A stretch of DNA of 14,362 bases from Candidatus Latescibacterota bacterium (GTDB lineage: Bacteria > Latescibacterota > UBA2968), in assembly GCA_038279365.1 (NCBI GenBank), contig JAYODI010000025.1, forward strand, positions 1 through 14,362, in the 5' to 3' direction. Below, one piece after another: positions 654 through 12,228 of the stretch. The translations under genes and the position numbers were made by a program. Position 1 is the stretch's first letter; each line of letters opens with the position of its first letter. Under the pieces are notes generated by a model, which made no database searches, was not told the origin of the DNA, and saw only the letters and a program-made list of their open reading frames with translations.

Positions 654-1910
654 ATGATGCGTTTTGTATGGTTGATATTGCTATTGATCATAATTGGGTC
701 GGATGTACCTGTGTGTGGCCAAGGTACACCGGCCTTTTTTATGGGCAATGGCAAAACAGGTGAAAAACCTCAATCTAAGGTGTGGTTTCACAATGGATTT
801 TGGTGGTGCTTGTTACCTGGCACAGAGCAAGGTGAAACAGCGTTGCGCTTTTACCAACTGCACGGTGATGTCTGGCAATGCATAGGGGATGGGGTTGATG
901 TGCGCGAAGAAGTGCAAGCCGATGTGTGGGCAGAAGGTGACAATTTGTTTGTGTTGGTGTTTCACCCAAATGAAACGCATTTTTTATCGTTCTTTTTTAA
1001 CCAGGCTCAAGGGCAATATTTTTTGCAAGAGGGTTTTCCCGTTACGTTGGCACCTTTGCCGGTGGTTGGGGTGGAAACCATGTCGCTTCGGCGTGATGGA
1101 CAGGGGCGGTTTTGGGTTGTTTTTGAAGGTGAAGCCAAAGGGGATAAACGCGGGAGTGTGTGGGCCTTGTGGTCCGATGATGGCTTAGATTGGCATCTTA
1201 AGGGTGTGCGGTTGGGCACCAATGTTGCCCCTGATGATATTGCCACTTTGTGCCGTTTTGTAATTGGAGGCACGGGATATATAGGTGCTATTTGGTCGCA
1301 ACAATCGGCCAACAAATCCACACACCGCGATTCGGCAGGGGTGAGTCGGTTGGTGATGCGTTATCACAAAGACGGAGATGCACCAACTCAGTGGTCACCC
1401 ATTGAAGAAATAGCGTCGGGTCAAGCATTGGCAGATGACCATCTCAATACGGCTGTTGCCCGTGATGGGCAGATTTATTTGGTAACCAAAACAAGTTTGG
1501 ACGATTTAAAACCCAAAGATATGGATGCACCGTTGTTGATGTTGTATGTGCGGTCAAGCCGAGGAGGGTGGGCGGGATATACCCTATCTAAAAGCACGGA
1601 GCGGGGTACACGTCCTATTGTTACTTTGGATGAAGAGCGAGGTATATTACACATATTTTATACCATTCCAACCAACAAAGACCAATCGGAGCGCGCCATC
1701 GTACATCGGTCTTCGGACCGGACAAATATACAATTTACAGAATTGGATAGGGCCATTGCACAAGAGGGTATCTATTTAAACGATGTTACATCAACACACC
1801 AGGGCATGACGGCAGATACGGGTATTTTGGTGATGTGTTGGGGGAGAGAATCAAAAAAAAATACACCCAATAGGGCGTATTTTAGAGTCTATAAATTAGA
1901 CAGCGGCTGA
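654..1910 (+). CDS. Secreted hypothetical protein, probable beta-propeller (BNR/Asp-box-like)
   Basis: 418-aa ORF with AGGA upstream and an N-terminal hydrophobic signal peptide (MMRFVWLILLLIIIG). It has many short beta-strand/Trp patterns and an Asp-box-like WSDDGLDW. Motif blocks TGEKPQSKVWFHNGFWW, ADDHLN, VTKTS and TRPIV look like a conserved family. Confidence 0.75.
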   Translation: MMRFVWLILLLIIIGSDVPVCGQGTPAFFMGNGKTGEKPQSKVWFHNGFWWCLLPGTEQGETALRFYQLHGDVWQCIGDGVDVREEVQADVWAEGDNLFVLVFHPNETHFLSFFFNQAQGQYFLQEGFPVTLAPLPVVGVETMSLRRDGQGRFWVVFEGEAKGDKRGSVWALWSDDGLDWHLKGVRLGTNVAPDDIATLCRFVIGGTGYIGAIWSQQSANKSTHRDSAGVSRLVMRYHKDGDAPTQWSPIEEIASGQALADDHLNTAVARDGQIYLVTKTSLDDLKPKDMDAPLLMLYVRSSRGGWAGYTLSKSTERGTRPIVTLDEERGILHIFYTIPTNKDQSERAIVHRSSDRTNIQFTELDRAIAQEGIYLNDVTSTHQGMTADTGILVMCWGRESKKNTPNRAYFRVYKLDSG

Positions 1911-2403: not shown

Positions 2404-3996
2404 ATGCGGCTTGGATTGGTGGGTAAATTGATCGTTGCTGCGGGCGTGACATTGGTAATGGCCTTGTCTGCAGGGTTTTGGGTGGTGCTCACCCGAGAAG
2501 ATCGGCAAGCCCGAGAAGATTTTAAACGTGAGTTGGGTACCATTACGGGGTATGCCAAAGCTGTGCGAGAATTTATGGCCGAAAACCCCGTAGAGATCCA
2601 CAGAGATTCAACCTACCACAATTTGAATCATGTGCCCGTTATTGCGGCTTGGTTGACTGCCCAAAAATATGCCGATAAACAAGAGTATGTTTTTAGAACG
2701 CCGTCATTAACCCCTCGTTCAATAAAAAATACACCTACGCCATTTGAACGGCGGGCATTGTTGGCTTTTGAAAAAGACACAAGTTTAAATGAATATAGCG
2801 AAGAGGTAATGTCTGATGGGGTGCAGATGGTGCAATATGCGGTTCCCATGCGACTGACCCAAGATTGTTTGACCTGTCATGGTTTTCCCAAAGGCGAACC
2901 CGATGTTTTTGGGTATCCCAAAGAAGGTATGTCAGAAGGTGCATTAAGAGGGGCGTTTAGCTTACAAGCTCCGTTAACTTCTTTGTCCCTACGGCAAAAA
3001 AACAACCGACGGGCGTTATTTTTTATTGGGTTGGGTATTGTGTTGGTAACAGGGTGTGCCATTTGTGTTGCCATTCGGGTGGTTATTCGACCCTTAGATG
3101 GTTTTTTGGCCGCTATTCGGCGAATTGGCGCTGGGCAAATTCAAGAACGCGTATCGGTTTATTCCAATGATGAAGTGGGTGAATTGGCCATAGAGTTTAA
3201 CCGTATGGCCGATCAATTGGAGGCTTCTTATGCCACGCTTGAAGAACGGGTTCAAGAACGTACGCAGGCATTGGAGCAGTCACAATCTCAACTGGTTCAA
3301 GCCTCAAAGCTTGCGGCATTGGGCGAGTTGGTCGGGGGGATTGCACATGAGGTGAATACCCCTATTGGTATTATTATTATGCGTCTGGCGAGCTTGCGCC
3401 CCGATGCCAAAGAAAGTGGTTTGTCTGAAGATTTGCTTGAAGATTTAGAAGTTATTGATCGGCAAGCCAATAAAGTGGCGCAAATTACGTCGGGGCTTTT
3501 GGCTTTTGCCCGACAAACACCGTACTCACCCCGAGAAACAAACCTCAATCAAGTGGTTGCCAATGCCATTGGGTTGGTCGAAAATGTGATGCGCAACAAA
3601 GGCATTGTCTATCGCCCATCCTTGGCAGATGATTTGCCTTTGGTATCTTTAGATACCACGCGTATTGAACAAGTTTTGTTAAACTTGTTTAACAATGCCA
3701 TGGATGCCATGCCCACTGGCGGTGAGTTGATGGTTACCACAGAGAAATTTGAAACCGAAATGGGGGAATTTTGGGTGCGGGTACGGGTGCGCGACACTGG
3801 GGAGGGGATACAGACAGAGCACTTAAATCGCTTGTTTGACCCTTTTTTTACGACCAAGGAAGTGGGGAAAGGTACGGGCTTGGGGTTGTCGATCAGTTAT
3901 GGGCTTATTCAAGAACATGGAGGCACGCTTTCTGTTGAGAGCGAATATGGTCATTGGAGTGAATTTAGAATTGAATTGCCAGCCGTTTTGATATGA
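2404..3996 (+). CDS. Membrane sensor histidine kinase with extracytoplasmic c-type heme domain (DUF3365/Tll0287-like), HAMP, HisKA, HATPase
   Basis: GAGG RBS. Two TM segments flank a domain with PR..KN.P..FE and CLTCHG (2866-2880) ... GALRGAFS. HAMP (NDEVGELAIEFNRMA), H-box GIAHEVNTP, N-box QVLLNLFNNAMDA, DTGEGI, FDPFFTTK and GTGLGLS are present. Confidence 0.93.
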   Translation: MRLGLVGKLIVAAGVTLVMALSAGFWVVLTREDRQAREDFKRELGTITGYAKAVREFMAENPVEIHRDSTYHNLNHVPVIAAWLTAQKYADKQEYVFRTPSLTPRSIKNTPTPFERRALLAFEKDTSLNEYSEEVMSDGVQMVQYAVPMRLTQDCLTCHGFPKGEPDVFGYPKEGMSEGALRGAFSLQAPLTSLSLRQKNNRRALFFIGLGIVLVTGCAICVAIRVVIRPLDGFLAAIRRIGAGQIQERVSVYSNDEVGELAIEFNRMADQLEASYATLEERVQERTQALEQSQSQLVQASKLAALGELVGGIAHEVNTPIGIIIMRLASLRPDAKESGLSEDLLEDLEVIDRQANKVAQITSGLLAFARQTPYSPRETNLNQVVANAIGLVENVMRNKGIVYRPSLADDLPLVSLDTTRIEQVLLNLFNNAMDAMPTGGELMVTTEKFETEMGEFWVRVRVRDTGEGIQTEHLNRLFDPFFTTKEVGKGTGLGLSISYGLIQEHGGTLSVESEYGHWSEFRIELPAVLI

Positions 3997-4011
3997 CGAA
4001 AGGATGGGTAC

Positions 4012-5403
4012 ATGTCTCAATGTACAGTTTTGGTGGTTGATGATGAACCCGATATGTTGAGCAGTTGGAAAAGATTTTTGGGGCGTTCTTATGCCGTTGA
4101 AACGGCCCAAAACGGCAATGATGGATTGAGCAAATTTGAGGACTTACAACCCGATTTGGTTATTACAGACCTCCGTATGCCTGGCATGGATGGGTTTACT
4201 TTATTACAAGAAATTAAAAAAAAGCAAGCAGATGCCTTGGTCATTGTGTTAACAGGATATGGCACCATTGAAGATGCGGTGCGGGCGATGGATGCAGGGG
4301 CATATTATTTTTTACAAAAAAATGACAAACCCGAGCGTTGGTTAGATGTGGTGAGGAAGGCTTTAAAAGAGAAAGAATTGACATCTGAAAACAAGGCCTT
4401 AAAAGAACAACTTGAGACCAAGTTTACGTTTAGCAATATTATTGGCCAAAGCCCTGCCATGCGCCGTGTTTTTGATTTGGTCAGTAAAATCGCCAACACA
4501 CAGGCCAATGTGCTCATTACGGGTGAGAGTGGCACGGGTAAAGAGCTTATTGCACGCAGTATTCACGCAAACAGCAGTCGCAAAGGGAAACCTTTTGTGG
4601 CCTTAAATTGTGGTGGGTTGCCCGAACATTTGGTTGAGAGTGAATTGTTTGGACACGAAAAAGGGGCTTTTACGGGGGCCAATGCGGCACGCTCTGGTTT
4701 GATGGAGCATGCGCATGCGGGCACCTTTTTATTGGATGAGATTGGCGAGTTGCCCATGCATTTGCAGGTGAAGTTTTTGCGTGTCTTAGAAGAGCGTCGC
4801 ATTCGCCGTTTGGGAAGCAACCGAGAGATCGATTTGGATATTCGCTTGGTTTCGGCCACCAATCAAAATTTAGAAAATTTGGTTGCAGAGGGCGGTTTTC
4901 GCGAAGATTTGTTTTATCGCATCAACACATTTGTCATCCATTTGCCCCCCCTGCGTGAGCGCGTGGGGGATGTGCCCATTTTGGCCAATCACTTTTTGGC
5001 ACATTATGCCGCACAGCGAAGTGACCAAGGCCCAAGTGCCATTTCTGACAAAGCAATGGCGCGTTTAGAACAGCATACTTGGCCAGGCAATGTTCGTGAG
5101 TTACAACACGCAATGGAACGGGCTGTTACATTGGCCTCTCAAGACGAAATTTTAGTCGAAGATTTGCCAGATAACTTGGGCATGTCGCGCAGTGTGGGGT
5201 TGCGGTTACAACATTTTGATCAACCCTTTAAAGATGCCAAAGAAAATGTCATTGAAGAATTTGAAAGGGCCTATGTCGAAAACTTGCTTCAAGCACACAA
5301 TGGCAATATTTCAAAAGCGGCCCAACACAGTGGCATAGATCGTCGGTCTTTGCACCGTTTATTGGTTAAGCACCATATAGATGCCCGTTCATTTAGTGGC
5401 TAA
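4012..5403 (+). CDS. Sigma54-dependent response regulator, NtrC/AtoC family (REC-AAA+-Fis HTH)
   Basis: REC domain (VVDDE, ITDLRMPGMDG), Walker A GESGTGKE, ESELFGHEKGAFTGA, Walker B LLDEIGE, FREDLFYRI, WPGNVREL and C-terminal HTH GNISKAAQHSGIDRRSLHRLL. Confidence 0.96.
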   Translation: MSQCTVLVVDDEPDMLSSWKRFLGRSYAVETAQNGNDGLSKFEDLQPDLVITDLRMPGMDGFTLLQEIKKKQADALVIVLTGYGTIEDAVRAMDAGAYYFLQKNDKPERWLDVVRKALKEKELTSENKALKEQLETKFTFSNIIGQSPAMRRVFDLVSKIANTQANVLITGESGTGKELIARSIHANSSRKGKPFVALNCGGLPEHLVESELFGHEKGAFTGANAARSGLMEHAHAGTFLLDEIGELPMHLQVKFLRVLEERRIRRLGSNREIDLDIRLVSATNQNLENLVAEGGFREDLFYRINTFVIHLPPLRERVGDVPILANHFLAHYAAQRSDQGPSAISDKAMARLEQHTWPGNVRELQHAMERAVTLASQDEILVEDLPDNLGMSRSVGLRLQHFDQPFKDAKENVIEEFERAYVENLLQAHNGNISKAAQHSGIDRRSLHRLLVKHHIDARSFSG

Positions 5404-5421
5404 TCCTTTTGTTTTCTTTAT

Positions 5422-5460
5422 AACCCCCTCGGAAAAACATTTTTCCGAGGGGGTTTTTGT
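5422..5460 (+). terminator. Rho-independent terminator after the kinase-regulator operon
   Basis: Perfect inverted repeat AACCCCCTCGGAAAA / TTTTCCGAGGGGGTT with a 4-nt loop, followed by TTTGT, 18 nt after the stop codon. Confidence 0.88.
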
Positions 5461-5498
5461 TGAGACAATGGTGTCTCTCATGGGGCAGTGATTCCTCA
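5461..5498. promoter_or_regulatory. Tandem palindromic upstream activator sites (UAS) for a sigma54 enhancer-binding protein
   Basis: TGAGACA-ATGG-TGTCTCT (5461-5478) and TGGGGCA-GTGA-TTCCTCA (5481-5498) both fit TGnGnCA-N4-TGnCnCA with one mismatch each. They are 20 bp apart (about two helical turns) and about 95-135 bp upstream of a -24/-12 box. Confidence 0.6.
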
Positions 5499-5548
5499 TA
5501 AATATGATCTTGAATTGAGGGGTGCGTTGTTGGGTTGCGCCCAAAATG

Positions 5549-5566
5549 AAAAAAAACAGCAATTTG
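5549..5566 (+). promoter_or_regulatory. IHF-like site / A-tract between UAS and sigma54 box
   Basis: AAACAGCAATTTG (5554-5566) is one mismatch from WATCARNNNNTTR and overlaps an A-tract (5549-5556), at the usual position for DNA looping. Confidence 0.4.
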
Positions 5567-5593
5567 CTTTGGTTTTGTGTGCGATTGTTTTGG

Positions 5594-5609
5594 TGGTATG
5601 GTGTTTGCA
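5594..5609 (+). promoter_or_regulatory. Sigma54 (-24/-12) promoter
   Basis: TGGTATGGTGTTTGCA has GG (5595-5596), exactly 10 nt, then GC (5607-5608), matching TGGYAYR-N4-TTGCW. Predicted TSS near 5620. Confidence 0.72.
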
Positions 5610-5646
5610 ATAATGCATAAAAAACGATCTGCATGGGAGTGCTGTT

Positions 5647-5769
5647 ATGAGCAAAGAAAATTTGCGACATCCGGGCCAATCTGTGCGCAGAATGCCTTGG
5701 TGGCTTACGCTTATCGTAATTTCTTTGGTGGTGTGGGCAATTGCCTATTTGGCGTTGCTTGTTGTATGA
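5647..5769 (+). CDS. Small (40 aa) single-pass membrane protein, not in the ORF track
   Basis: Translation MSKENLRHPGQSVRRMPWWLTLIVISLVVWAIAYLALLVV*. GGGAG RBS (5635-5639) sits 7 nt before the ATG. Basic N-terminus followed by about 24 hydrophobic residues. It is the first ORF after the predicted TSS and ends 21 nt before the ACD start. Confidence 0.68.
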   Translation: MSKENLRHPGQSVRRMPWWLTLIVISLVVWAIAYLALLVV

Positions 5770-5790
5770 CAAAATCATAGGGGTGTTATT

Positions 5791-7995
5791 ATGCCCTCAA
5801 TCGGTCAAGAAGATACAATGGATTTGAGCCCAGTATTCAAATTGAAATCCTTGGAGAATGCACAAAAGCGATCAAAGAAAGTGCGTTTGCTCCAAGCATT
5901 GTTTGAACCCAAACATATTGCTGTAATTGGAGCCAGTCCAAATGAGGGCAGTGTGGGATGGGCCATTTTCCGCAATTTGTTGATGAATGGTTATTTGGGC
6001 ATGTTGTTTCCTGTAAATCCCAAATACGAAAGCATTATGGGGGTGCGGTGTTATCCTACTTTGTCGGCTGTGGATATGGACATCGATTTGGCCGTGATTG
6101 CCATTCCTGCAGTGGGAATTCCTGAGCTTTTGCGTGAATGTGCAAGCAAAGGGGTCAAAGGCGCAATCGTTATTTCGGCAGGTTTTAAAGAAGTGGGGGC
6201 AGAAGGCGCAGCACTTGAAACACAGATTCGGGAAGTGGCCCAAGCTTCGGGTATTGCCCTTTTGGGGCCCAACTGTTTGGGTATTATCAATACCGATCCA
6301 AAAGTATCCATGAATGCCAGTTTTGCTCGGCGTATGGCCATTCCAGGGTCATTGGCTTTTATGTCTCAGTCGGGTGCTTTGTGTACGTCTATTTTGGATT
6401 ATGCAGCAGGCAATCACATTGGTTTTTCAAAGTTTATCAGTTTTGGCAACAAGGCCGATGTGACCGAAACCGATTTGCTCGGTTATTTGGCTGAAGACAA
6501 ACAGACCAAAGCCATTTTGATGTATCTCGAAGATTTGAGCGATGGGGCCTTGTTTATGCAAGTGGCGCGTGAGATAACAGAAAACACGGGCAAGCCCATT
6601 CTGGCAATCAAAACAGGGCGAACTCCCGAAGGGGCCAGTGCTGCAGCATCGCATACGGGGTCCTTGGCTGGCACAGATGAAGTCTATGATGCCGTGATGG
6701 CACAAGCGGGAGTTTTGCGCGTTGATACGGTGCAAGAGCTTTTTGATTATGCCATGGCTTTTGGCAACCAACCCTTGCCCCATTCCAATCGGGTGGCCAT
6801 TGTGACCAATGCAGGTGGGCCGGGCATCATGACCACCGATGCGTGTGTGCGCTATGGTTTAAAGTTGGCCAAATTATCAGATCAAACACAACAAAGTCTC
6901 AAAGAGATATTGCCTTCTGCGGCAAGTGTTAAAAACCCTGTGGATGTGATTGGCGATGCACGCCACGATCGTTATGCCGCTGCTTTAGACCGGGTTTTAA
7001 AAGATGATCAAGTCGATGGCGCCATTGTAATTTTAACCCCGCAAACCATGACGGATATCGAAAATGTGGCTGGGATTATTGTTGAAGCATCCCAGTCTTC
7101 AAGCAAACCGATTTTGGCATCTTTTATGGGGTTGGTCGATGTTTCTGCTGGGGTAGAGATGTTACGCCAACACGGTGTGCCGCATTATCCGTTTCCTGAG
7201 GGGGCGGCACGTGTTTTGGGAGCCATGCACAAATATCAGCGTTGGGTTTCACGACCACGCACCACCGAGCGTATTTTTGAAGTTGATCGTGGCCAAGTAC
7301 AACGCATTTTTAAACAAGTGGTGGCAGATGGTCGCGATGCGTTGCCAGAGGTGGAGGCTATGGCAGTACTCAAGGCATATGGTTTTCCTGTGTTAAAGAC
7401 CGAACTGGCAAAAACAACAGATGAAGCCGTCACTTTTGCAAAAGAAATGGGTTTTCCGGTGGTGATGAAAATAGCCTCCCCCGATATTTTGCATAAAACC
7501 GATGTGGGTGGGGTTATGGTGGGGGTGAAAGATGAAGCGGGTGTGCGCGAGGCATTTGAAACGCTGAGTGCGCGAGCAAAATCACATCGCCCCGATGCAA
7601 ATGTATGGGGTGTTGCCATTCAAGAGATGGCCCAAAAGGGCAGAGAAGTCATTTTGGGAATGACGCGCGATCAAACGTTTGGCCCTCTTATTATGTTTGG
7701 TTTGGGCGGTATATATACCGAAGCACTGAAAGATGTGACGTTCCGTTTGGCGCCCCTGCGATGTTTAAGTGCCAGGAATATGTTATCCGAAATCAGAGGG
7801 CGTCGCATTTTGGAAGGCATTCGTGGGGAAGCCCCAGTAGATTTGGACAGTTTGCAAGCCTGTTTAGAGCGGTTGTCGCAGTTGGTGATCGAGTTTCCCA
7901 TTATTAAAGAACTCGATATCAACCCGCTGGTTACCTATGCCAATGGGGCTTGCGTGGCCGATGCACGTATTATTTTGAAACGAGCAACACCATGA
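5791..7995 (+). CDS. ADP-forming acetate/acyl-CoA ligase, fused alpha-beta (AcdAB family)
   Basis: CoA-binding domain (FEPKHIAVIGAS, PVNPK, ISAGFKE, GPNCLG), SQSGAL, SFGNKADV, phospho-His in ASHTGSLAG (6652), TNAGGPG, NPVDVIGDA. ATP-grasp with HKTDVGGV (7492), FGPLIMFGLGG and ELDINP. Start uncertain (5791, 5818 or 5881). Confidence 0.93.
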   Translation: MPSIGQEDTMDLSPVFKLKSLENAQKRSKKVRLLQALFEPKHIAVIGASPNEGSVGWAIFRNLLMNGYLGMLFPVNPKYESIMGVRCYPTLSAVDMDIDLAVIAIPAVGIPELLRECASKGVKGAIVISAGFKEVGAEGAALETQIREVAQASGIALLGPNCLGIINTDPKVSMNASFARRMAIPGSLAFMSQSGALCTSILDYAAGNHIGFSKFISFGNKADVTETDLLGYLAEDKQTKAILMYLEDLSDGALFMQVAREITENTGKPILAIKTGRTPEGASAAASHTGSLAGTDEVYDAVMAQAGVLRVDTVQELFDYAMAFGNQPLPHSNRVAIVTNAGGPGIMTTDACVRYGLKLAKLSDQTQQSLKEILPSAASVKNPVDVIGDARHDRYAAALDRVLKDDQVDGAIVILTPQTMTDIENVAGIIVEASQSSSKPILASFMGLVDVSAGVEMLRQHGVPHYPFPEGAARVLGAMHKYQRWVSRPRTTERIFEVDRGQVQRIFKQVVADGRDALPEVEAMAVLKAYGFPVLKTELAKTTDEAVTFAKEMGFPVVMKIASPDILHKTDVGGVMVGVKDEAGVREAFETLSARAKSHRPDANVWGVAIQEMAQKGREVILGMTRDQTFGPLIMFGLGGIYTEALKDVTFRLAPLRCLSARNMLSEIRGRRILEGIRGEAPVDLDSLQACLERLSQLVIEFPIIKELDINPLVTYANGACVADARIILKRATP

Positions 7996-9872
7996 GTTGG
8001 CAATCGATTTACAGTTCCAAAATGGTGACAGCCTCAGAAGCCGTGGCGCATATCAAGCGTGGACAACGGGTTTTTATTGGGTCTGGTGCTGCAGAACCAC
8101 AAGCTTTGGTTGCGGCTTTGGCAGATCGTGGGGCCGATTTGGCCGACAATCAGTTGATTCATATTCGCAGTTTGGGCATTGCACCTTATACCGAATCAAA
8201 GTTTTCAGACAAATTTCGATACAATACGTTTTTTATTGGTGACAGTGTGCGTTCTGCGGTTGCAGATGGTATGGCCGATTATACACCCATTTTTCTTTCC
8301 GAAGTACCTGCACTTTTTCGGTCGGGAAAGGCCCCAATTGATGTGGCATTGATTCAAGTGACACCGCCCGATGCACATGGTTATTGCAGTTATGGTGTGT
8401 CTGTAGATATTGTGAAGTCGGCTGCTGAATCGGCCCGCATGGTTTTTGCCGAAGTAAATCCACAAATGCCTCGCACTTTGGGCGATTCATTCATCCATGT
8501 CAATAAACTCAATTTGTTAATCGAAAATGACACGCCCATTTTGGAATTGGAAGGCCATACTCCAGATGAAACGGCTCGCAGAGTGGGGCACCATATTGCC
8601 GAATTGGTTGAAGATGGATCGACCTTGCAAATGGGTATTGGCACCATTCCCGATTCGGTGTTATATGAGCTGACCGATCGCAAAAACTTAGGTGTACATT
8701 CAGAAATGTTTTCTGATGGCATTATGCAACTTATCGAAAAAGGTGTGGTTACAGGATCGCGAAAAACCATTCATCGCGGCAAGGTTGTGGCAAGTTTTGC
8801 ACTGGGGTCACGTAAGCTCTATGAGTTTATTCACGACAATCCAATGTTTGAATTTTACCCCAATGAATACAGCAATGATCCTTTTGTGATTGCACAAAAT
8901 GCCAAAATGGTGGCCATCAATTCTGCCTTAGAAGTGGATCTGTCAGGGCAGGTATGTTCCGATTCTTTGGGGCAGTATTTTTACAGTGGCATTGGTGGGC
9001 AAGTTGATTTTATTCGGGGCGCTGCTCGGTCTCAAGGTGGCAAGCCCATTATTGCATTGCCTTCTACGGTTTGGGTTGATGGCAAGCGAGAGTCGCGCAT
9101 TACGTCTATGCTCAAGCCAGGTGCAGGTGTGGTGACATCACGCGGTGACGTTCATTATGTGGTGACCGAATACGGTTCGGTGGATTTGCATGGGTTGTCT
9201 ATTCGAGAACGCGCATTGGCGCTTATTCATATTGCACATCCCGATTTTCGCGAAGATTTGATGCGTGAAGCTCGGGATCGCCATTTGGTTTATGCCGATC
9301 AAATCGTTGTGGAAGAAGTTGGCTTGGCAGAATTTGAAGCGTTAGAGACGCGATTTGAAGGGGCAAATGGAGATGTTATTTTGGTCAGACCCATTACGCC
9401 AACCGATGAACAACTGATACAAGATATGTTTTACCGATCTTCTGAGCAGACAATTTATATGCGTTTTTTTTCGTCTCTCAAGTCGTTGCCGCACAAACAA
9501 GCGCAGTTGTTTGTGGATGTGGATAACCGGCAGCATTTGGCATTGGCGGCCACTGTTCATGAGGCCGAACGCGAAGTGATTGTAGGTGTGGGGCGTTACC
9601 ATTTGGATCCGGCAACCAATTATGCCGATTGTGCTTTTATGGTGCGTGACGATTGGCAAGATCAAGGTATTGGTCGTTATCTGGTCAAGCGTCTTATTGA
9701 AGTGGCACGCCAATATGGTGTCAGTGGTTTTACGGCCGATGTGCTCATGCAAAATACAGCAATGATGCATGTGTTTCATCAATGTGCACCAGGTAAAATA
9801 GAAAGCCATATGGCAGACGGCAGTTACCATTTGTCGTTTTCATTTATGACCGATGATCAGGAAGATGAGTGA
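7992..9872 (+). CDS. Acetyl-CoA hydrolase/CoA-transferase (family I, 4-hydroxybutyrate CoA-transferase-like) fused to a C-terminal GNAT acetyltransferase
   Basis: True start is the ATG at 7992, overlapping the upstream TGA (ATGA), giving 626 aa. Motifs ADYTPIFLSEVP, PPDAHGYCSYGVSVD, LQMGIGTIP, catalytic Glu in GVHSEMFSDG, SGIGGQVDF and ERALALIHIAHPDFRE. GNAT from about 9370 (VRPITPTD, YMRFF, VGVGRY, VRDDWQDQGIG, N.AM..VF). Confidence 0.93.
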   Translation: MSWQSIYSSKMVTASEAVAHIKRGQRVFIGSGAAEPQALVAALADRGADLADNQLIHIRSLGIAPYTESKFSDKFRYNTFFIGDSVRSAVADGMADYTPIFLSEVPALFRSGKAPIDVALIQVTPPDAHGYCSYGVSVDIVKSAAESARMVFAEVNPQMPRTLGDSFIHVNKLNLLIENDTPILELEGHTPDETARRVGHHIAELVEDGSTLQMGIGTIPDSVLYELTDRKNLGVHSEMFSDGIMQLIEKGVVTGSRKTIHRGKVVASFALGSRKLYEFIHDNPMFEFYPNEYSNDPFVIAQNAKMVAINSALEVDLSGQVCSDSLGQYFYSGIGGQVDFIRGAARSQGGKPIIALPSTVWVDGKRESRITSMLKPGAGVVTSRGDVHYVVTEYGSVDLHGLSIRERALALIHIAHPDFREDLMREARDRHLVYADQIVVEEVGLAEFEALETRFEGANGDVILVRPITPTDEQLIQDMFYRSSEQTIYMRFFSSLKSLPHKQAQLFVDVDNRQHLALAATVHEAEREVIVGVGRYHLDPATNYADCAFMVRDDWQDQGIGRYLVKRLIEVARQYGVSGFTADVLMQNTAMMHVFHQCAPGKIESHMADGSYHLSFSFMTDDQEDE

Positions 9873-9991: not shown

Positions 9992-10024
9992 CGCATCCAA
10001 GCAGGTTTGGGTGCGTTTTTTTTT
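9992..10024 (+). terminator. Rho-independent terminator (end of acyl-CoA operon, or attenuator ahead of the pyrophosphatase)
   Basis: CGCATCCAAG-CAGG-TTTGGGTGCG forms a 10-bp stem with two G-U pairs, followed by 9 T (10016-10024). Confidence 0.7.
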
Positions 10025-10146: not shown

Positions 10147-12228
10147 ATGCAACCCTTATTTGCACCAGGATTGGGCATTGTTGGTTTGCTGTTTGCCGGG
10201 TTAACGTATCGTTATGTGATATCTCAACCGAGTGGTACAACGCGTATGCAAGAGATTGGAGATGCAATTCATGAAGGTGCAATGGCCTTTTTGAAGCGTG
10301 AGTATTCTGTTTTGTCTGTATTTGTGGTGGTGGTGGGTGCCCTGTTAGGATGGGGCATTGGTTTGATGACGGCCATTTCATTTGTAGGGGGCGCTATTTG
10401 CTCTGTTTTTGCAGGGTATATTGGCATGCAAGCGGCCACGCACGCCAATGTGCGAACCACATTTGCCGCCAATCAAGAAGGGCAAGGAAAAGCACTAAAT
10501 ATTGCGTTTTCGGGGGGGGCTGTTATGGGCCTTGCTGTGGCCAGTTTGGGGTTGTTTGGGGTGGGGGCTTTGTTTCACTTTTTTGGTAGCGCCCCCCGCC
10601 GCCCCGGGGCCCCCCCGGCCCCCCCCGCGCCCGGGGTTTTGTTTCACTTTTTTGGTAGCCCCAGCCAAGCGCACGTTATTAATGGATTTGCTATGGGGGC
10701 CAGTTCTATTGCGTTGTTTGCGCGCGTAGGTGGTGGGATTTATACCAAAACTGCTGATGTGGGTGCAGATTTGGTGGGCAAAGTAGAGGCGGGTATCCCC
10801 GAAGATGACCCCCGGAATCCGGCGACAATTGCAGATAATGTGGGTGACAATGTGGGGGATGTTGCGGGTATGGGAGCCGATATTTTTGAATCGTATGTAG
10901 GGTCTATTGTGGCGACGATTGCGATTGCTGCCACAGCGGGTGTTTCTTTGCTCGAAAAATTAAATGGCGGGGTTGTGGCCGATGAGATGGCGGTAAGATT
11001 GGTCGCGATGCAATTGCCTTTGTTTGTTGTGATGATTGGATTGGTTGCCTCCCTTGTTGGTGTGGCGTCTATTCGCATATTGCAATCGCTCAGCCCCGAA
11101 TCCGCCTTGCGATATGCCACCTATATTGCGGCCGTGATCATGTTGGTCGGCACCTATGTTGTTGTTGGAAAAGTTGGGCTTTCTCAAAATATATTCCATG
11201 CCATTCTTGCCGGATGTGTGGCAGGAATCGTTATTGGTTTGTTAACCGAATACTATACGGGGGCAGGCCCCGTACTGCGCATTGCAAAAGCGTCTGAAAC
11301 TGGGCCAGCAACCAATATCATTGCAGGTTTGGCCGTGGGGATGGAAAGTGCCGCTTTGCCAGTTATGGGAATTTGTGCTGCCATAGGTATATCTTTTCAT
11401 TTTGCAGGGCTATATGGCATTGGAATCGCCGCTGTGGGAATGCTTTCCACGGTTGGTGTGACTATGGCCGTTGATGCATATGGCCCTATTGCAGATAATG
11501 CCGGGGGCGTTTCTGAAATGGCTGGTCTGGGTGTCGAAACGCGTAAGATTACAGATAGCTTGGATTCTTTGGGCAATACAACTGCGGCCATTGGCAAAGG
11601 ATTTGCCATTGGTTCTGCGGCCTTAACAGCGCTGGCTTTGTTTTCGGCATATACGGCGGCAGTGGGGTTGGATTCGATTGATTTGACCAACCCAATGGTG
11701 GTCATTGGGCTGTTCATTGGTGGCGTGATTCCATTTTTGGTTGCGGCACAAACCATGACCAGTGTTGGAAATGCGGCCTTTAAGATGGTTGAGGAAGTAC
11801 GTCGCCAATTTAGAGAAATTCCAGGTCTTATGGAAGGTACGGCAAAACCTGATACGCGCCGATGTGTGGATATCAGTACCATAGCGGCGCTTAAAGAAAT
11901 GGTTGCACCAGGGTTGCTCGCGGTTAGCTCTCCCGTTGTGGTCGGATTTGCTTTGGGGGCGGAAGCATTAGGTGGGTTTTTAGCTGGAGCAACACTTTCT
12001 GGGGTGTTGTTGGCATTAATGATGTCAAACAGTGGTGGTGCTTTAGACAATGGGAAAAAATGGATTGAAGAAGGCCATTTAGGCGGTAAGGGATCTGGGG
12101 CACATAAGGCCGCTGTTGTGGGGGATACGGTGGGAGATCCTTTAAAGGATACATCTGGGCCTTCTATGAATATTTTGGTCAAATTGATGTCTGTGGTGGC
12201 GTTGGTTTTGGCACCTTTGTTGGTTTAA
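10147..12228 (+). CDS. hppA: Membrane-integral pyrophosphatase, K+-dependent, probably Na+-translocating
   Basis: AGGAGG RBS. Signatures [84 protein letters not shown] and [14 protein letters not shown]. Many TM helices. Confidence 0.96.
10569..10659 (+). repeat. 22-bp exact direct repeat flanking a pure G/C tract inside hppA
   Basis: TTTGTTTCACTTTTTTGGTAGC at 10569-10590 and 10638-10659 (offset 69 nt). 10591-10636 contains only G and C. Confidence 0.95.

Follow-up and report, generated by a model that had tools for sequence, protein, structure and literature searches.

What does a membrane-bound sensor kinase with heme c control when its gene and that of a sigma54-dependent activator precede an operon for a 40-residue peptide, a nucleoside diphosphate (NDP)-forming acyl-CoA synthetase (ACD) and a CoA-transferase fused to a GNAT acetyltransferase? 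This question is raised by a stretch of 14,362 nucleotides (hereafter the window) at the start of contig JAYODI010000025.1 (C152) of a Candidatus Latescibacterota bacterium (assembly GCA_038279365.1; genome of 6.0 Mb, 98.5% complete, hereafter the source genome). A preliminary description of the window, made from its letters, had taken these five genes for a dedicated system. All the parts that it named are present where it placed them, as indicated by profile searches, a motif and helix scan and a terminator scan, but the dedicated system itself has to be given up: the gene-neighborhood survey shows a layout restricted to one genus and points to an operon that is one target of a wider regulon. 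In the reading that we favor with moderate confidence, the kinase and the activator would constitute a sigma54-dependent low-oxygen switch, and the operon would be one of approximately 9 to 12 promoters controlled through the box TGWGACA-N4-TGTCWCA.

The activator as the probable reader of the box

The box generalizes a palindrome at position 5461, between the activator gene and the operon. The activator has the composition of an NtrC-type sigma54 enhancer-binding protein, with the receiver aspartate (Asp53), an AAA+ domain that includes Walker A and GAFTGA at 218, and a Fis-type helix-turn-helix; rpoN was found in the source genome and a -24/-12 box lies downstream of the palindromes. In the profile search, no named NCBIfam equivalog reaches its cut-off for this protein. 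The recognition helix, DRRSLHRL, sets it apart from all others among the 26 activators that were listed for the source genome and is common to 45 of the 53 activator homologues, with orthologues encoded in 31 of the 132 genomes of the class. Among the three nearest families sharing this helix, a site with at most two mismatches lies within 250 bp behind the orthologue at 7 of 9 loci, whatever gene comes next, compared with 1 of 77 loci of unrelated control activators (distant activators among the matches listed in a genome-collection scan with the whole activator). In three orthologues the helix is altered, and the corresponding place behind them has an altered palindrome together with a sigma54 box. 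Furthermore, the three genomes richest in sites among the 132 (14, 13 and 8 sites; 5 or fewer in the rest) are the three that encode an orthologue of the heme-c kinase; only one of these, G033, belongs outside the genus, and 5 of its 8 sites are accompanied by a sigma54-like box.

The preliminary description expected the activator to regulate the adjacent sigma54 promoter, and the position of the box behind the orthologues makes the activator the most likely reader of 5461-5498; very probably, it binds the box and drives the operon promoter. Could another sigma54 activator, or several, read the box, the neighboring pair being a bystander? The source genome has 26 full-length activators, boxes also adjoin activator genes on contigs C57, C22 and C87, and a perfect ccmE box is present in G005, where no orthologue of the activator was found (this genome is 82% complete). 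Such a scheme is nevertheless improbable in view of the three regularities just described, namely the placement of the box directly behind the orthologue despite unrelated downstream genes, the joint variation of helix and box, and the identity of the most box-rich genomes with the heme-c kinase carriers.

In genome G003, a perfect box that lies downstream of the orthologous pair is immediately followed by an IS630-like transposase pair (L127:11967-13141).

Promoters behind the box

The raw count of the palindrome in the source genome is not decisive, in contrast to its location ahead of sigma54 boxes. When up to one mismatch is allowed, 14 sites are found, whereas shuffled palindromes average 3.3 and reach 14 or more in 3 of 40 cases. 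Strong sigma54 boxes follow at a distance of 50-220 bp in 5 of these 14 sites, and in 11 of the 90 sites with at most two mismatches, compared with 1.9% of random positions. With 26 hand-picked sites of relatives as the training set, a matrix was tested over 737 sigma54 boxes against 150 permuted matrices: at 14 bits, 9 of the 737 boxes are marked (permuted mean 0.38, maximum 5; 1 in the downstream control), and at 12 bits, 12 boxes (permuted mean 1.1, maximum 8). An earlier, gene-filtered promoter scan, now superseded, had missed the window's promoter owing to a shadow open reading frame; there, 1 of 200 unfiltered permutations matched the observed count. On these counts, the operon is likely to be one target among about 9 to 12 predicted promoters.

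In addition to the operon of the window, the box precedes a sigma54 box in the source genome ahead of cydAB, the PFOR gene 3 kb beyond the window, the gene of an AhbD-like heme b synthase (477 bits, slightly below the cut-off), an operon for a Phs/Psr-like (PhsA-like) molybdoenzyme reductase, a multiheme cytochrome cluster, a receiver-less activator, a CusA-type efflux operon, a TonB/PSP1/sigma70 operon and a QueD-like gene. The cydA site is located at C190:7011, the PFOR site at C152:17386 and the ccmE site discussed below at C10:32604. The aerobic ACIII-caa3 operon has neither box nor sigma54 site. Among relatives, the predicted targets are napDA, hypFCD and ppk2 in G001, PFOR in G004, a type II DMSO-reductase-family operon in G030, an nrfH-containing operon in G007 and a ccoI-ccoNO-ccoP cbb3 operon in G085.

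The best-scoring site of all stands ahead of ccmEF, followed by a sigma54-like variant box with GA for GC at -12, which is kept in four genomes. This region (G000 C10:32304-32621; L168 and L112, also L138, L141 and L145) combines a perfect palindrome and the variant box with a leader of approximately 220 nucleotides that includes a conserved stretch, and possibly represents a non-canonical sigma54 promoter or a leader RNA. Three further sigma54 promoters (G000 C10:19425, C41:118220, C124:5947) share a different element, TCGGACAC-N3-TGTATCA, which probably serves a different activator as its box; their targets resemble ABC-permease and ECF-sigma genes.

Conservation of the locus across relatives

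The five-gene layout is intact in the source genome and in L170 only, the one relative obtained from a metagenome scan over half of the collection, whose contig ends early in the last gene. It is broken in both other genomes of the genus. G001 retains the activator, the boxes, the promoter and the peptide, and only the last codons of the transferase; G002 retains the enzymes and a remnant of the box, with the kinase, activator, promoter and peptide missing at this locus and the start of the ACD gene cut (an assembly error is possible). In G033, the heme-c pair precedes a different gene.

The enzyme pair has a history of its own. In a survey that covered 16 of the 19 CoA-transferase-GNAT loci (leaving out G149, G152 and G154), the ACD gene is found directly ahead of the fusion in all 8 genomes whose fusion is at least 72% identical and in none of the 8 more distant ones. 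Box and sigma54 site precede this pair in G077 and G056, which belong to another family and in which the kinase and activator genes sit elsewhere (in G057, both are weak); regulation thus appears to be conserved where adjacency is not. Of the linkage proposed in the preliminary description, then, the recurrence of the box before the enzyme pair in another family could be confirmed, whereas the full linkage is confined to the source genome and L170.

A kinase with an exchanged sensor

The kinase has two predicted membrane helices, with CxxCH at residues 155-159 between them. It matches PF11845 with 79.9 bits (cut-off 24.1), and CxxCH is invariant in the sensor alignment (85 of 85 rows). The structural model of the sensor built from these 85 rows (predicted local distance difference test score of 81) finds Tll0287 (5b82, E 1.9e-07) and GSU0935 (3b42, E 9.4e-04) as the best PDB folds, so that the predicted fold is a Cache domain like theirs. 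The DUF3365/Tll0287 family has been renamed sCache_heme (10.64898/2026.02.01.703092, cited here and below for its accessible part). The source genome encodes ccmE and ccmF, that is, cytochrome c maturation genes for covalent heme c. There is no distal cysteine in the sensor, and no distal histidine or methionine is invariant in its 11 closest rows. Met176 was considered as a distal heme ligand and rejected: it occurs in 82 of 85 rows, yet is not invariant among kinases.

The kinase core tells a different story from that of the sensor. It is 57-68% identical to kinases that adjoin the orthologous activator in other genera, and those bear a cytoplasmic PAS domain with what we take to be the FixL-type motif, its presence being counted here. 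A search with the sensor, past 10 close orthologues, retrieves proteins with an MCP domain in 106 of the next 109 cases (120 of the 135 matches were listed). The grouping of the core with FixL-type heme-b PAS kinases and the proximity of the sensor to chemoreceptors imply that the sensor was exchanged. In a quick tree of 24 cores, from which 10 kinases without the H-box pattern were excluded, heme-c and PAS kinases are intermingled within a single clade (support 100), which supports the exchange without fixing its direction; the activator tree was also a quick one. Thus, the sequence comparisons support the view that the kinase exchanged its sensor domain, the direction of the exchange not being set by the tree.

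A third variant, seen in family f4, has a transmembrane segment and HAMP without a periplasmic domain and is often found beside a FixL-motif hybrid kinase. At L215, L218, L225 and L226 (G114, G121, G127 and G125), a FixL-motif hybrid kinase, a box, a sigma54 promoter, a transmembrane-HAMP kinase of this kind and the activator follow each other, an arrangement reminiscent, by analogy, of NmpU/NmpS in a two-kinase, self-induced form. Elsewhere in the source genome, two orphan FixL-motif kinases and a second CxxCH (heme-c) kinase are encoded (C47:31612-34221, C57:19339-21960, C51:15586). Divergently from the kinase gene of the window, on the minus strand at 1958-2347, lies the gene of a lone receiver-domain protein, which is retained together with its promoter region in G002 despite the loss of the kinase there; it may act as a phosphate sink or relay.

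Oxygen limitation or nitric oxide?

What condition, then, does the regulon report? Judging from its predicted genes, it probably responds to limitation of oxygen or another electron acceptor. The preliminary description had suggested an external redox or gas signal on acceptor loss; this part is in line with the co-regulated genes, whereas the route through a dedicated five-gene system is not. The source genome has one heme-copper oxidase, of the caa3 type, and neither of its two Crp-family proteins has an FNR-type cysteine cluster. As to the signal proper, we regard the redox state of the heme as the leading candidate, about as probable as all others together, nitric oxide (NO) as a clearly weaker one, and any other signal as weaker still. 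The redox reading is based on the fast autoxidation of signaling-type sCache_heme, which gives no stable oxygen complex (10.64898/2026.02.01.703092), on the equivalence to sensors of the FixL type and on the absence of the NO-detoxification genes from the regulon.

The same wiring could also serve a signal of NO (or CO, or sulfide) emanating from anoxic sediment, either as a proxy of anoxia or for inducing NO-tolerant respiration. NO bound to the signaling-type sCache_heme of P. azotoformans dissociates slowly (10.64898/2026.02.01.703092), and the lack of a distal cysteine and of an invariant distal histidine or methionine in the present sensor, the cytochrome bd genes among the targets and the targeting of napDA in G001 are all congenial to this explanation. 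All the same, we consider it rather unlikely. The NO-detoxification cluster of G001 and G002, consisting of proteins that we take from their sequences to be a Crp/Fnr-type regulator, a di-iron repair protein and qNor, carries neither the box nor a sigma54 site to match, which favors oxygen or redox over NO. Moreover, no heme-copper-family NO reductase and no prismane-family gene were found in the source genome, and PFOR, an Fe-S sensitive enzyme, is an unlikely gene for induction by NO.

Several observations weigh against the low-oxygen regulon and have to be set beside the evidence for it. The consensus was seeded from the window and the training sites were hand-picked, which makes the genome scan circular in part; with the threshold at 10 bits, it marks 16 boxes against a permuted maximum of 17, which is not significant. 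In the largest family, f4, a box directly behind the activator is found at 0 of 17 loci, other genes coming next, which brings the figure for all scored orthologue loci to 7 of 30; at several f4 loci, the box occurs elsewhere near the pair, often ahead of the kinase-activator genes themselves. There is no box ahead of the ACD gene in G116, G118 and G119, the latter two of which also gave no activator match, or ahead of nrfHA, ackA and acs in the source genome. The Cus efflux, QueD-like and TonB/sigma70 targets have no obvious place in oxygen limitation, and the same holds for some targets in relatives, namely corrinoid and uroporphyrinogen-decarboxylase-like genes, and sugar-nucleotide genes in G044. 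The two FixL-motif kinases and the second heme-c kinase mentioned above could supply extra input to the activator. Two acetate kinase-family genes are present in the source genome, so that ACD is not needed for acetate-linked ATP. Finally, the only characterized signaling sCache_heme is an NO binder (10.64898/2026.02.01.703092).

The enzymes of the operon

The ACD has alpha and beta domains with both histidine motifs, which we take to be catalytic, as we do the glutamate (Glu238) of the CoA-transferase. It exceeds the cut-off of the acetate-CoA ligase model TIGR02717 (586.5 against 567.15), and with 788 bits remains under the 1300 cut-off of the 4-hydroxybutyrate-CoA ligase model; its best PDB match is the 4-hydroxybutyrate-CoA ligase 8wzu, with which the histidine motifs align. 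The fusion gene of the preliminary description is present, a start at 7950 being less likely than the ATG at 7992 that overlaps the ACD stop. Both transferase domains are found in its product, the H[ST]E motif is kept in 120 of 120 homologues, and the match to the butyryl-CoA:acetate CoA-transferase model is under the cut-off. Fusions of this type are common, E 1e-50 being passed by all 7999 candidates that were scored. We infer that the operon enzymes would combine substrate-level ATP synthesis with protein acetylation, which is in line with the surroundings of the more remote fusions: their genes come after acs, which would make Acs a suitable target of the GNAT domain, and after a Pta/AckA-like gene. 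In family f10, acs, a gene for an 815-residue AckA-like/Pta fusion and the CoA-transferase-GNAT gene form a recurring acetate-metabolism cluster (L253:4623-9021, L256:483-4809).

A different division of labor is conceivable, in which the enzymes would mainly form an acylation-control unit, a split Pat where ACD and CoA-transferase supply or sense acyl-CoA for the GNAT domain, or would activate a short acid such as 4-hydroxybutyrate instead of making ATP. The GNAT domain matches PatZ and PatA, the ACD matches PatZ at E 1e-110, and 4-hydroxybutyrate enzymes are the best solved relatives of both the ACD and the transferase; the fixed order of ACD and fusion in the closer genomes and the acs and Pta/AckA-like neighbors of the distant fusions can be read in the same way. 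We view this as a tentative alternative, less probable than ATP synthesis: the ACD-like domains of Pat lack the catalytic histidine (PMC8556138, cited for its accessible part), whereas the ACD here keeps both histidines and passes the acetate-CoA ligase cut-off, and co-regulation with PFOR suits a discharge of acetyl-CoA. The alternative touches only the enzyme step of the mechanism proposed below and is compatible with the regulon.

The 40-residue peptide

The peptide is, on the evidence of its conservation, a real gene: it has the same length in G001 and L170, and codons 14-40 differ from those of G001 by 13 synonymous and 4 non-synonymous changes. The preliminary description placed it in an operon to which it ascribed an acyl-CoA function. 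Its kinship lies elsewhere, with cbb3 oxidase operons, distant homologues being located between ccoO and ccoI in G116 and G033. It is not a CcoP, having only a FixP_N-like helix that stays under the cut-off, no cytochrome c domains and no cbb3 operon around it; neither ccoN nor ccoO was found in the source genome. By sequence, it is best read as an orphan piece of a cbb3 subunit. The operon of G116 and G033 (L267:482-6580, L268) is itself atypical, consisting of genes for a cytochrome c, ccoN, ccoO, a ccoS-like gene, a stand-alone CcoP-N-like peptide and ccoI, with no full ccoP in the fetched stretch.

An MgrB-like feedback peptide was also considered; co-occurrence with heme-c sensors (4 of 168 genomes) was dropped, as two of the four lie in cbb3 operons. 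The predicted complex of the peptide with the kinase sensor dimer scored 0.02, which carries no weight in either direction, and in an atlas search with the peptide all scores were under 0.9.

Layout of the locus

The coordinates of the features are collected in Table 1. Site 1 is kept in G001 and L170 with a remnant in G002, and site 2 is kept in register in G001, L170, G002 (C272), G030 and G004; in G001, of the same genus, the two sites hold register with each other. The sigma54 box is near-identical in G001 and L170. The IHF-like site, scored against what we take to be the consensus, is the weakest element of the locus: it is partly retained in G001, and a search of the source genome for IHF genes gave only HU/IHF-family genes, all under the IHF-beta cut-off. 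Contigs from RNA run X1 overlap parts of 5640-8700, and give no start, strand or level; runs X1 and X2 contain small shares only, and a silent control region was absent from the comparison.

Table 1. Features of the locus in window coordinates
Feature	Positions	Strand	Basis
Sensor histidine kinase: transmembrane segment, periplasmic sCache_heme (DUF3365/Tll0287), transmembrane segment, HAMP, HisKA (His315), HATPase	2404..3996	+	Pfam matches over cut-offs, motifs, helices
Sigma54 enhancer-binding response regulator: receiver, AAA+ with GAFTGA, Fis-type helix-turn-helix, DRRSLHRL helix	4012..5403	+	profiles, motifs
Intrinsic terminator closing the kinase-activator unit	5422..5455	+	15-pair stem, T run
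Putative upstream activator site 1, TGAGACA-N4-TGTCTCT	5461..5478	.	22.1 bits, matrix trained on relatives
Putative weak activator site 2, 20 bp past site 1	5481..5498	.	3.7 bits
Weak IHF-like site with upstream A tract	5554..5566	+	sequence, 8/9 positions of the presumed consensus
Sigma54 -24/-12 promoter, TGGTAT-N5-TTGCA, 133 bp past site 1	5594..5609	+	7/7 scored positions
40-residue single-helix membrane protein, CcoP N-terminal (FixP_N)-like	5647..5769	+	FixP_N E=0.012, below cut-off
Single-chain NDP-forming acyl-CoA synthetase (ACD), His288 and His568 kept	5791..7995	+	TIGR02717 over cut-off, motifs
AbfT/Cat2-like CoA-transferase (Glu238) fused to Pat-type GNAT	7992..9872	+	profile and structure-database matches
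Intrinsic terminator closing the operon	9992..10015	+	terminator scan; retained in G001 despite loss of both enzyme genes

Beyond the operon, at 10147-12228 on the plus strand, the window encodes an H+-pyrophosphatase that contains a proline-rich insert of low complexity. A short segment near residues 140-172 is present in duplicate on the flanks of this insert, a duplication that is possibly an assembly artefact. This gene is absent at the syntenic locus of G002, and a homologue precedes the ACD gene in G118. At the other end (654-1910, plus strand) lies the gene of an exported protein of 418 residues with only a weak BNR-repeat match, truncated in G002.

Proposed mechanism

We infer all steps from heme to transcription as follows. 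The periplasmic heme c, devoid of a distal cysteine, would be oxidized under oxygen and would become reduced or ligand-bound as oxygen drops, upon which the kinase would phosphorylate Asp53 of the activator, and the activator would oligomerize on the paired sites and open sigma54 promoters. In the cell so switched, the CoA-transferase would interconvert PFOR-derived acetyl-CoA and other short acyl-CoAs, to be discharged for ATP by the ACD, and the GNAT domain would silence the AMP-forming acetyl-CoA synthetase by acetylation. The ccmEF genes, once induced, would in turn affect the maturation of the sensor itself.

A speculative extension, to which we give considerably less credence, is that in Latescibacterota a sigma54 activator runs the aerobic-to-anaerobic switch, and that its kinase has swapped a cytoplasmic, oxygen-binding heme-b PAS domain for a chemoreceptor-related periplasmic heme-c Cache. 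The heme-c version might then read the redox state of the periplasmic electron chain, command an enlarged regulon in the stead of FNR, induce its own heme maturation and keep the orphan cbb3 peptide in a new role.

Comparison with known systems

No paper was found in the literature within reach (most subscription journals and preprint supplements are beyond it) on this box, on the regulon of an sCache_heme kinase or on the pairing of ACD with CoA-transferase-GNAT; the text passages of the Desulfovibrio sigma54 regulome (PMC4641369) do not show the box, its motif figures not being visible. The definition of the sCache_heme family dates only from 2026, with NO and redox as the two candidates for its physiological signal. 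The present locus offers a kinase, its candidate cognate activator, a box and a list of targets, so that this issue can be put to test with purified proteins and a reporter. Moreover, in relatives the same activator is accompanied by a kinase that is a predicted oxygen sensor, which provides a testable handle on what the heme-c sensor reads: the exchange between a FixL-type PAS domain and a heme-c Cache on a shared kinase core, while activator and box stay the same, amounts to a natural experiment on whether both report the same condition. The predicted regulon would give an uncultured phylum an initial map of how its response to oxygen limitation is regulated, and lets the CoA-transferase-GNAT fusion, the multiheme cluster and the alternative sigma70 be assigned, provisionally, to the oxygen-limitation response.

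How does this putative system relate to those already known? With FixLJ it shares the FixL-type heme-b PAS motif, in the orthologous kinases of relatives, and high-affinity oxidases among the targets; FixL, however, acts via the LuxR-type FixJ and FixK, whereas here a sigma54 activator is used and the kinase of the window has no PAS domain. The co-regulation of ACD with PFOR resembles the formation of acetate by PFOR and ACD that is established for archaea. Type I/II Pat proteins are similar in that a Pat-type GNAT is associated with an NDP-forming acyl-CoA synthetase, but in those the GNAT shares its chain with an ACD-like domain that is catalytically dead (PMC8556138), whereas here the ACD is separate and keeps its histidines, and the GNAT is fused to a CoA-transferase. 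Cluster 2 of sCache_heme has the same periplasmic Cache with CxxCH, connected through a transmembrane segment and HAMP to a signaling module and lacking a distal cysteine (10.64898/2026.02.01.703092; 10.64898/2026.05.25.727664, likewise for its accessible part); those of its members that have been characterized comprise chemoreceptor domains and an orphan HAMP receptor, and the accessible text includes no kinase with an assigned response regulator, site or regulon.

A close functional parallel is NmpRSTU of Myxococcus xanthus, which, in the accessible part of its description (PMC11841059), similarly combines a heme kinase input, an NtrC-like activator and paired palindromes before sigma54 promoters, and controls oxygen-limitation genes including a P-type ATPase and cbb3 operon (compare G085) and oxygen-independent heme synthesis; by gene content, the regulon predicted here fits such a set. 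The differences are nonetheless considerable. NmpU is a cytoplasmic protoglobin protein that feeds a phosphorelay, whereas here a single membrane kinase with a periplasmic heme-c Cache, and no globin or hybrid domain, would suffice; the NmpR box is GCGCA-N5-TGCGC, in contrast to TGWGACA-N4-TGTCWCA; and, unlike in NmpRSTU, the predicted targets here encompass fermentation genes and anaerobic reductases. Sensor, relay and box being different, the switch described here is not a member of the NmpRSTU system, as compared by published features rather than by the NmpR sequence, though the two would appear to work alike.

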